In this document: piece after piece, positions 30,332 through 34,104 of the stretch
Numbering within the stretch: position 1 is the first letter of the stretch
Layout: each line of letters opens with the position of its first letter
Origin: Octopus vulgaris
Taxonomy: Eukaryota
Direction of reading: 5' to 3'
NCBI GenBank assembly: GCA_951406725.2
Contig: OX597826.1
Coordinates: forward strand, 62,000,001-62,064,000
DNA: 64,000 bases
The notes under the pieces: model-generated
Databases searched by the model: none
What the model saw: only the letters and a program-made list of their open reading frames with translations
Told to the model about the DNA's origin: nothing
Position numbers and translations under genes: made by a program

Positions 30332-30721
30332 ATTAATTTAATATATAAACTTCTATAGTTTATATATTAAATTATATATAGTTCATATATAACTGCTGAC
30401 TACCTGATAATTATTATTAACGTGATTTTTATCCTTATGTTATATATATATATATATATGAATAGCCGAAATTGCAAAGATAATCTGGAACTCGACGGAG
30501 GAAAGAAAACTTCGAATGACATGACCTTAGTTTCTTTGTATCGTCTATCTGGATATTTTGCGTTCTTGTCCCATTTTGCATTTATATAAATTTGTATATA
30601 TATATATAAATCTATAAATCTATATATATATATATATATAAAAAAGTTGAGTTGTGGGGTATCGCACGAGTGGGATTATATATGAAAAAAGGTTTGAAAA
30701 TGCAATTTAAACGATGTTTAT

Positions 30722-30766
30722 TTACTTAACCGGTTTCACTCTTTGGTAAAAGATTGTCAAAAGTAA
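30722..30766 (-). ncRNA. Minimal type I hammerhead ribozyme, U3-A8 variant (left arm)
   Basis: Exact reverse complement of 33285-33329. Confidence 0.7.
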
Positions 30767-33284
30767 CATTGAATATTATGGGTTCAAAAAAAGTTTTTTA
30801 CATAATTGTCACATTGAATATTATGAATTCAAAAATGTTTTTTTATACATAATTGTCACATTACATGTATAAATATAGTATAAAAAAGTTCAATAGTGTG
30901 ATGAGAATATTTGGAAAAATTGGCAGAAAAGAATAAAACAAATATATTATTGGAAATTTGGTTGCGTTAATTATTGGTTGTCGCAAATTGTCACATTACA
31001 TGTATATATATACAGTCTTTGGTAGAAATGACATGTTAAAGACATAAGGAAGTGTAATAGTTTGGTGAGAAAGCTTGTAATATTGACAGAGAAAATTAAA
31101 ATGGATATTTTAGACATCTCAGAATATTTTGAATCGAAGGCGAGAATTTGTTTTTTACTGACCTGTTTGTTTTAGCAGAAAAGTTGAATTGAGAGAAAAA
31201 AAGATATGTACCCAATTTGGTTTATACTTCCCCTTCAAGCATCAGTGATTTTGGGGTTATTGGGAGGTGAGTATGCGGGTGTGAATAGATGTGTCCGTGT
31301 GCCTGCTGGTCAGACAGCGTCTGTTTGTCACACACATATATACACACACACACACAACAACAATACACACACACACATAGTATACACACACACACCACAT
31401 ACACACAACACACACACACACAGAACACACACACACACAACGCACCCACATATATAATATATACACACAGCACACAAATATAACATGTATTTATATATAA
31501 TATACACACATATATAACACATACACACACAACACACACACACACACACACACACACACACACACACACACGCACACATATATACATAATATAAATATCA
31601 CACAAATACACCTAGCATATATATACACATACAATACACATACACAGCATGTATATAATACACATACACAATATATGCATGCAATATACATACGCAATAC
31701 ATACATATAATATATATATATATAGACAATGCATATACATATATACATATATACATATAAATAGTGTTTACATACACATACATAGATATACCACATATAC
31801 ACACAATATACATACATACAATGCATACACATACACGTACGCATACATATAAAATATATAGACACACACACACATAACATACATACACAATGCATACATA
31901 TATATACACGCAACGTATATACATGTATTCATGTATATATAGCACACTTACAATATACATATATACAATGCACACATACACACATATATACACTTAATTG
32001 TACACATACATATACAATACACATACATACAATATACATATACACAATGCGCATGCAAATAATGCACATGTTTATACACCCATATACATGAAAATATATA
32101 TACACACACACACATACACACACACATATATATATATACACATATATATATATATATACACATATACATACATACATACATGCACATACATATATTTTTT
32201 CACACACATACACACACATATATATATAAAATTCACACACACACCCACACACACAAAATACAAACCTATAGTGTACACACTCAAATATATCTCTACATAC
32301 CGCACACACACACAAACAATGTACTCACATATACACACATACCATGCATATACACACACAGCACACACACATATATATATATATATATATATAAACAAAT
32401 ACACATGTAAATACATACACTCGTACACAATGCTCACACACACACACATACACACACACACGCACACAGTGCACACACACACACATATATACACACGTGC
32501 ACACACACACACACAACGCGCGCACACACACACATACACACACGCACACAGTGCACACACACACACACATATAAACACACGCGCACACACACACACACAA
32601 CGTGCACACTCACACACACACACACAACACTCACACACATACATAACCTACATATATATAATGCATGCGTGTGCGTGCCACGTATGTGTGCGGTCAATGC
32701 CCGCTAGTGTGTCCTATGCGTGCCGATGCGCGCATGTGCCCACCCGCACGATATGCTGTGAGTCTATTCACACCCGCATACTCACCTCCCAATAACCCCA
32801 AAATCACTGATGCTTGAAGGGGAAGTATAAACCAAATTGGGTACATATCTTTTTTTCTCTCAATTCAACTTTTCTGCTAAAACAAACAGGTCAGTAAAAA
32901 ACAAATTCTCGCCTTCGATTCAAAATATTCTGAGATGTCTAAAATATCCATTTTAATTTTCTCTGTCAATATTACAAGCTTTCTCACCAAACTATTACAC
33001 TTCCTTATGTCTTTAACATGTCATTTCTACCAAAGACTGTATATATATACATGTAATGTGACAATTTGCGACAACCAATAATTAACGCAACCAAATTTCC
33101 AATAATATATTTGTTTTATTCTTTTCTGCCAATTTTTCCAAATATTCTCATCACACTATTGAACTTTTTTATACTATATGTATACATGTAATGTGACAAT
33201 TATGTATAAAAAAACATTTTTGAATTCATAATATTCAATGTGACAATTATGTAAAAAACTTTTTTGAACCCATAATATTCAATG

Positions 33285-33329
33285 TTACTTTTGACAATCT
33301 TTTACCAAAGAGTGAAACCGGTTAAGTAA
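33285..33329 (+). ncRNA. Minimal type I hammerhead ribozyme, U3-A8 variant (right arm)
   Basis: TTACTT-TTGACAA-T CTTTT ACCA AAGAG T-GAAA-CCGG-TT-AAGTAA: 6-bp stem I, 5-bp stem II, palindromic stem III (ACCGGT) and a GUU cleavage triplet. Confidence 0.7.
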
Positions 33330-34104
33330 ATAAACATCGTTTAAATTGCATTTTCAAACCTTTTTTCATATATATATATATATATATACATATATATATA
33401 TATATATATATATATATATATATATATATATATATATATATATATATATATATATATATATATATATATATATATATATATATATATATATATATATATA
33501 TACGACGGAGCCTCCACGGAGTTGCTGTCTACCAAATTCCCTTACAAAGCATCGGGCGTACGGGGTTATAGTAGAATATATTTGCCCAAATTAGAGGGAC
33601 TTGAACTCAAAACCACGTTGTTGGAATGCGAGTTTCTTAACCACACACTGGTGCCTGGCCGTCTCATTATTTCAGCAATTCGCCATGTTCAACCAAGTTA
33701 TCTAGTGTGTCATTCTATTTTTAAAGATAGTTGGGTTAATTCAAGGGAAAATTGGCTGCTCTGTCTAACACGTTCTGCAGTCACTGAGCTCTCTTTGCAT
33801 CGTACATTAGTCTACGATGGTTGATCAACGAGCATACATATACAGTAATTGGTTCTCTCTTTTTCTTTCCCTCTGTCCCCCTCACTCTCTCTTTATCTAT
33901 CTATTTATCTACCTATCTGTCCTTCTCTTTCTCTCTCGCACGCACACACCACTACACAAAGAGCAAAAATAGCACTTAAACAAGGAAGCTCTCATTCGAT
34001 GCTAAACCTAGTAAAAATATCAGACAAATCTCCCTCGATCCTTACATTAGATAATTTTGTTGACAAAAAGAAAAGTCAAAAAAGGAAAAGTTGTGATGCA
34101 GTAA

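Follow-up and report, generated by a model that had tools for sequence, protein, structure and literature searches.

The locus at positions 30641-33374 of the window (the whole 64,000-nt stretch of Octopus vulgaris contig OX597826.1 analysed here) consists of two 5′-truncated Penelope copies lying head-to-head in (TA)n, and it is an insertion-time product of a young, autonomous family. The head-to-head pair is taken to result, with a probability of about 0.8, from one insertion event of an autonomous Neptune-like Penelope in which both ends of the cut target prime reverse transcription. On its own the locus is ordinary for a Penelope-like element (PLE), and U3-A8 hammerheads, inverted pLTRs and one-ended tails have all been published already. 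The family is young and numerous, and it gives counted rules on the origin of PLE inverted repeats and tails: a pair has one tail, either of its arms may be the longer, homology at the junction is short, and the start sites match the target.

Architecture of the locus

The left copy (30641-32763, minus strand) is a 5′-truncated PLE copy of 2,123 nt comprising 3′ UTR, pLTR and tail, and starts ca. 50 nt past the position of the ORF2 stop of full-length copies. Read along the minus strand from 32763 to 30641, it corresponds to the last 2.1 kb of the full-length copy L050 with 99.3% identity (98.8% to another copy). The right copy, which is at the same time the right arm (32763-33374, plus strand, 612 nt), is 5′-truncated and tail-less, ends at initiation site A and is followed by (TA)n; it matches the last 650 nt of L050, less the 36-nt tail, at 99.2%. 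The copies meet 5′ to 5′ at position 32763 with a 1-nt overlap, and are bordered by a TA-rich target flank on the left (30583-30640) and by (TA)n on the right (33375-33502), where a target-site duplication is unreadable.

The first-pass annotation had described a foldback element at 30677-33375 with 613-bp arms, one difference between the arms, and an ORF-less spacer of CA/TA repeats. The inverted arms were confirmed, with lengths of 613 nt on the left (30677-31289, minus strand, 3′ end of the 3′ UTR/pLTR region) and 612 nt on the right, but they differ at two sites, a 1-nt indel at 30786 and a substitution at 30872/33180. The element begins at about 30641, since the left arm bears an overlooked 36-nt tail (30641-30676, minus strand), which in full-length copies lies between initiation sites A and B and opens the 5′ UTR. 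The supposed spacer (31290-32762, minus strand) indeed holds no real ORF, only translations of CA/TA repeats, but it is the CA/TA-rich 3′ UTR of the left copy. As this stretch is collinear with the left arm and matches the 3′ UTR of the family, there is no foreign spacer, just a 1-nt junction, and the “spacer” is that part of the longer copy which the shorter copy did not reach. A 44-45-nt tandem repeat lies immediately upstream of the hammerhead motif in both arms (30766-30862 and 33190-33285); its copy number varies by subfamily, and several full-length 5′ ends cluster there.

The autonomous full-length family

A search of the 2.8-Gb genome with the right arm returned 1,613 candidates, and the 40 of these that were scored had 99-100% identity. 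In 20 stretches near the top matches (19 loci) the arm occurred in pairs that face outward; the sequence enclosed by them varied and in many cases encoded an RT and a GIY-YIG nuclease. The inverted pLTR structure that had been proposed is thus present as outward-facing arm pairs at many loci, and the proposed Penelope-derived origin agrees with the RT and GIY-YIG ORFs, pLTR and tail at loci with the same arm. The suggestion of a non-autonomous family fails, because the copies are truncations of an autonomous coding element and the junction is different at every locus.

L050 is a natural full-length copy with a unit length of 5,829 nt, composed of a partial 5′ pLTR, a 448-aa ORF1 (L050:5198-6544, minus strand) and an overlapping 758-aa ORF2 (L050:2928-5204, minus strand), both open, a CA/TA-rich 3′ UTR of 2.1 kb, and a tailed 3′ pLTR. 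The same two-ORF layout was found in L121-L137, and copies of the family are 99% alike, which marks it as young. ORF2 matched RVT_1 in the Pfam scan (E-value 1.2e-7) and contains the GLKF, DKG and YLDD motifs of a PLE-type RT. The Pfam scan gave no GIY-YIG domain match for this ORF2; a C-terminal GIY-YIG domain (YVIRC..YIGQT..R..H..E) was read by eye from the sequence, and among the 648 ORF2 homologues in the search many full-length ones carry PF01541. The closest named RT homologue was a protein of Octopus bimaculoides, with 83% identity over 55% of the query. The linker CGRPNCKTC (CX4CX2C) and the CCHH residues (CEGC, H, H) are present, as expected for Neptune and equally for Nematis, both of which are marked by a CX2-5CxxC linker ahead of the nuclease and by CCHH according to PMC8557442. 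The pLTRs, the tandem or inverted structure and the 30-40-nt tail of EN+ PLEs are likewise found in the family. By these motifs, common to Neptune and Nematis, the family is classified as an autonomous, endonuclease-bearing, Neptune-like Penelope.

ORF1 was predicted to be helical over residues 6-235 and disordered beyond (mean pLDDT 57). A sequence search of the PDB returned no relative, and none turned up among the 158 pattern matches of a metagenome scan with the ORF1 alignment. As far as Neptune EN+ PLEs are described in PMC8557442, the octopus family resembles them in the order of RT and C-terminal GIY-YIG, the CX4CX2C linker, CCHH, the microsatellite target, a pLTR with hammerhead, the inverted 5′-truncated copy and a 30-40-nt tail at one end; unlike them, it has a helical ORF1 of its own, which overlaps with ORF2 in frame -1, and a long microsatellite-like 3′ UTR.

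Two further observations concern the relatives. Four RT homologues (P0016, P0033, P0046 and P0073) are filed under bivalve gill-symbiont bacteria and probably represent PLE contigs of the host that were binned with the symbiont. In L128, L129 and L138, full units (4.4 kb and 5.8 kb) stand in head-to-tail arrays, where same-strand hammerhead dimers could form.

Candidate frameshift between ORF1 and ORF2

In six octopus PLE families the sequence T TTT TTA stands in slippery phase, and ORF2 is in frame -1 relative to ORF1; in four of the six there is no ATG between this heptamer and the first RT motif. A matching Phe-Leu was found in 4/5 outside ORF1 homologues. The G that follows the heptamer is invariant, and would equally form a splice acceptor. 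No stimulatory hairpin was detected downstream of the slippery site in the six families, and a search of four families for a conserved splice donor of suitable phase found none.

The segment TTTTTTAG, followed in a search for spliced genomic copies, was kept in 67 of 68 cases, the exception (L102) being a 3-nt deletion. PLEs retain introns, and this count is for that reason not decisive. Contigs from 4 of 24 runs, whose status as RNA is a guess, contained no joints and were unspliced across the ORF1/ORF2 boundary, a kind of observation that cannot show absence, strand or cleavage. Judged from the reading frames and the conserved heptamer, a -1 frameshift at U UUU UUA is the route by which ORF1 would more probably be joined to RT; splicing is appreciably less probable, and some other route less probable again. 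For comparison, a figure legend in PMC8557442 (Fig. 1) mentions “ORF1 separated by a frameshift with a pseudoknot” in some PLEs, and two ORFs are described for a killifish Neptune in PMC12602865.

Genome census of pairs and tails

A 26-nt pattern from the ribozyme end had 718 exact matches genome-wide, and its reversed control none. The first 100 of the 718 matches listed fell into 65 clusters, with the orientations -/+ (31), -/+/+ (1), +/+/+ (1) and single (32). Accordingly 32/65 clusters among these first 100 matches begin -/+, and the opposite orientation +/- was not met.

The tail census covered 40 of the 43 C1 loci, which comprised 23 simple pairs, two loci with an internal tandem, and 15 apparently single copies. 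One of the apparent singles has a tail-less partner of 52 nt, leaving 14/40 single (nine tail-less, five tailed), so pairing is not obligatory. All 23 simple pairs had one tailed and one tail-less end. When pairs were scored over all loci (44 pairs, one further pair skipped), 43 were discordant in tail state, one (L048) was tail-less at both ends, and none was tailed at both. Since L066 and L089 represent internal tandem junctions and not ends, the one-tail rule holds for 41/42 true ends.

Arm lengths ranged from 52 to 5,950 nt across the 44 pairs. The tailed arm was the longer one in 30/43 pairs and the tail-less arm in 13/43, in several of these by more than 1 kb. Two short TA runs delimit the tail in full-length copies, and all 3′ ends examined terminate at one or other of these runs, beyond which the target (TA)n follows. 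Even in families with ORF1 only 39-45% identical, both 3′ ends likewise lie on the family's own AUAU runs.

The same head-to-head architecture was present at 44 loci with differing junctions, none of which shares the junction at 32763; such a pattern is neither chance nor that of a one-off misassembly. Clean junctions were found in 27/44 pairs, and 15 of these 27 overlap by at least 2 nt, against 17% in random joins, a microhomology count that is inflated because it takes the best match over a copy library. The other 17/44 junctions contain inserted or unassigned bases (more than 12 nt in nine of them). Overall, junctions showed 0-8-nt overlaps or short inserts, with no palindromes and no TA tract.

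Substitutions between the two arms of a pair numbered 0-3 in 33/34 pairs, with medians of 9-35 to other copies. When each arm was compared with its partner and 86 other arms, the partner was closest in 4/34 pairs and tied in 21/34, and another locus was closer in 9/34. Partner arms, in other words, resemble each other as closely as nearest neighbours do.

Origin of the paired copies

The near-identical arms, the ORF-less locus, and a motif that covaries across families (8/13 pairs, with 0/500 shuffles as high) would suit a non-autonomous element of foldback or retrozyme-like type, mobile as a 2.7-kb unit, whose transcript ends in an active ribozyme. We regard this reading as highly improbable, because its particular junction recurs in none of the 44 pairs and arm length is so variable, the ends are asymmetric, the inner sequence is the body of the element itself, and the ribozyme lies inside a duplex. 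Retrozymes, as far as described in bioRxiv 10.64898/2026.07.22.740005, are same-strand tandems, and the retrozyme-like character ascribed to the locus does not hold for copies that are inverted and truncated from a coding element. Two named classes were rejected on similar grounds. A foldback or MITE DNA transposon needs identical termini and a fixed amplified unit, whereas the ends here are asymmetric and the junction is different at each of the 44 loci; a non-LTR retrozyme needs at least two same-strand tandem non-coding units with a hammerhead ribozyme (HHR). With non-LTR retrozymes the locus shares its non-coding nature and a type I HHR related to PLE pLTRs, and it departs from them in being neither a same-strand tandem nor itself an amplified unit.

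Self-priming or fold-back of one cDNA or antisense template, as proposed for rotifer PLEs in PMC3846280, would explain why paired arms belong to one sub-lineage and, in 4/34 pairs, have private variants in common, and would fit the longer tailed arm in 30/43. It is nevertheless an unlikely source of the inverted copy, as the tail-less arm is longer in 13/43 pairs, a tailed arm is not copyable from a tail-less one, and the junctions have short overlaps or inserts and not palindromes. Rather less probable still are two independent insertions that hit one TA tract, or a fold-back created by the assembly. The (TA)n is self-complementary and the preferred target, and the locus is known here from the assembly; against these points stand the excess of -/+ over +/- clusters (32 to 0 among the first 100 of the 718 matches), the lack of a TA tract at junctions, tail complementarity in 41/42, and the two sites at which the arms differ here. 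One tail per pair, either arm being the longer, and 3′ ends on AUAU runs point instead to priming that is paired, is assisted by homology and proceeds from the two sides of a single break.

Proposed insertion mechanism

In dual priming, the GIY-YIG domain would cut both strands of (TA)n, and each 3′-OH would pair with one of the short AUAU runs of the element's RNA, either at site A at the pLTR end or at site B, 36 nt downstream and inside a conserved stem-loop. The two cDNAs would halt early at random places, and microhomology would then join them. The homology of the AUAU runs to the target is only ~4-12 nt, and is ambiguous against the (TA)n flank. Around site B, 7/7 rows retain a 6-bp stem, with one compensatory change, which is weak statistically (1/6 pairs covary, 30/500 shuffles as high). 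The one-tail rule together with the shared variants makes us lean to one RNA template for both cDNAs rather than two.

A more specific version can be offered only tentatively: one RT-endonuclease dimer with one RNA would cut both (TA)n strands and prime at once at the two AUAU sites, one per subunit, by target pairing, the RT being made via a -1 frameshift that takes place at U UUU UUA without a stimulatory structure. If true, the inverted repeat and the one-ended tail of PLEs would be explained by a single rule, and each such insertion would leave a perfect 0.05-5 kb hairpin in the genome. Hundreds of near-perfect hairpins could serve as dsRNA sources for editing or small RNAs.

The inverted 5′-truncated copy and the one-ended tail are known for PLEs (described in PMC8557442 and PMC3846280), and the formation of inverted repeats and tails is named as an open mechanistic question in the former. 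For Poseidon PAc of Anolis carolinensis, PMC11167929 describes cutting and extension of both strands, two internal start sites spaced by the tail, a predicted dimer, and an HHR dispensable for insertion. The octopus family is like PAc in its two adjacent start sites near a stem-loop with a spacing equal to the tail, in its AT-rich target, and in copies that run through the HHR site. Unlike in PAc, where initiation is inside an ORF, without target homology and alike on both strands, the octopus sites are in the 5′ UTR, on target-matching AUAU runs, with one used per end. A literature search, which covered few subscription papers, returned nothing on a dual-priming model or a Neptune frameshift beyond the papers cited here. 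The family lends itself as a substrate to the in vitro system described in PMC11167929.

The hammerhead motif

Each arm contains once the string TTACTT-TTGACAA-stem II-GAAA-CCGG-TT-AAGTAA, pointing outward and 45 nt from the arm end, as the first-pass annotation had reported, and with it the U3-A8 minimal type I hammerhead motif with palindromic stem III. The right motif (33285-33329, plus strand; predicted cut after 33323) is composed of stem I (33285-90/33324-29), core (33291-97), stem II (33298-313), GAAA (33314-17) and palindromic stem III (33317-22); the left one occupies 30722-30766 on the minus strand, with a predicted cut after 30728. A loose GAAA-palindrome pattern had nine matches in the window, and the hammerhead string was found nowhere in it beyond the two arms. 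An Rfam scan of the region at E≤10 gave 53 matches, none of which was a hammerhead, and the monomer motif, folded as a single strand, was not unusually stable (z -0.46 to 0.33).

The motif is kept among relatives. In an alignment of eight copies from five lineages, 90% of the cells were paired and 8/13 pairs were changed on both sides, a level that 0/500 shuffles reached, and the stem III palindrome covaries from CCGG to CAUG. U3, A8 and the core are kept, and as U3-A8 is invariant, 3-8 covariation itself is not displayed in this alignment. The core, stems I and II and the palindromic stem III of a minimal type I hammerhead are all present; the G10.1-C11.1 pair is replaced by U.U in the lineage of the window (4/8 rows), and is G-C or G-U in the four relatives. 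Judged from this alignment, the motif is a conserved structure of the minimal PLE type and the ordinary pLTR motif of the family. The Cercyon hammerhead of Schistosoma, as far as described in PMC4209133, is alike in the U3-A8 core, the palindromic stem III implying dimers, the pLTR location and the opposite-strand pairs, and differs in that the octopus family has U.U for G10.1-C11.1. U3-A8 and opposite-strand pairs of Schistosoma PLEs are reported with low activity even as dimers (PMC4209133 and the review PMC6765202).

The predicted hammerhead folds lie above the minimum-energy folds by 3.8 kcal/mol (monomer) and 7.8 kcal/mol (dimer), with similar gaps in relatives. With the partner arm, the predicted energy of the motif segment is -89.5 kcal/mol, against -3.0 kcal/mol for the hammerhead-like monomer fold. 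A transcript that both ends in a ribozyme and folds into a 600-bp dsRNA, as had been envisaged, is thus self-contradictory, the ribozyme being inside the duplex. There is one sense copy per strand and hence no cis dimer at the locus. By these predicted energies the hammerhead is probably inactive here, buried in the arm duplex and without a same-strand partner.

None of 27 ORF1-bearing copies starts within 15 nt of the cleavage site, and 24/27 extend 37 to >1,100 nt upstream of it; nine of these 24 begin at -119 to -166, which may be a region of transcript or copy start. The 3′ ends are all situated 51-87 nt past the predicted cut site. As genomic copies run through the cleavage site, their templates were uncleaved or re-ligated; the hammerhead appears not to have cut the RNA templates behind the genomic copies, and a circular RNA template is still compatible with these ends.

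In a related family (L125, L126, L127 and L137), GCAA replaces GAAA in the hammerhead core in 8/8 copies seen, and the family multiplied nonetheless. Near L126:8165 (plus strand) and L133:6007 (minus strand), other repeat families contribute minimal hammerhead motifs with the canonical C3-G8.

Other repeats in the window

At 34840-35615 a near-perfect 388-bp palindrome is centred on (TA)23. In translation its arms give the 3′ end, now decayed, of a LINE-like ORF with an EVGYRGYA motif, which we take to be of the restriction-like endonuclease type, and they stand tail-to-tail, so that their geometry is opposite to that of the PLE pair. A fragment related to this palindrome occurs at ~34100-34260. 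MITE-like inverted repeats of 198 bp, 91 nt apart and adjoining TA runs, are located at 58030-58516, and a tandem repeat with a 144-nt unit (3.5 copies, 97% alike) at 5582-6083.
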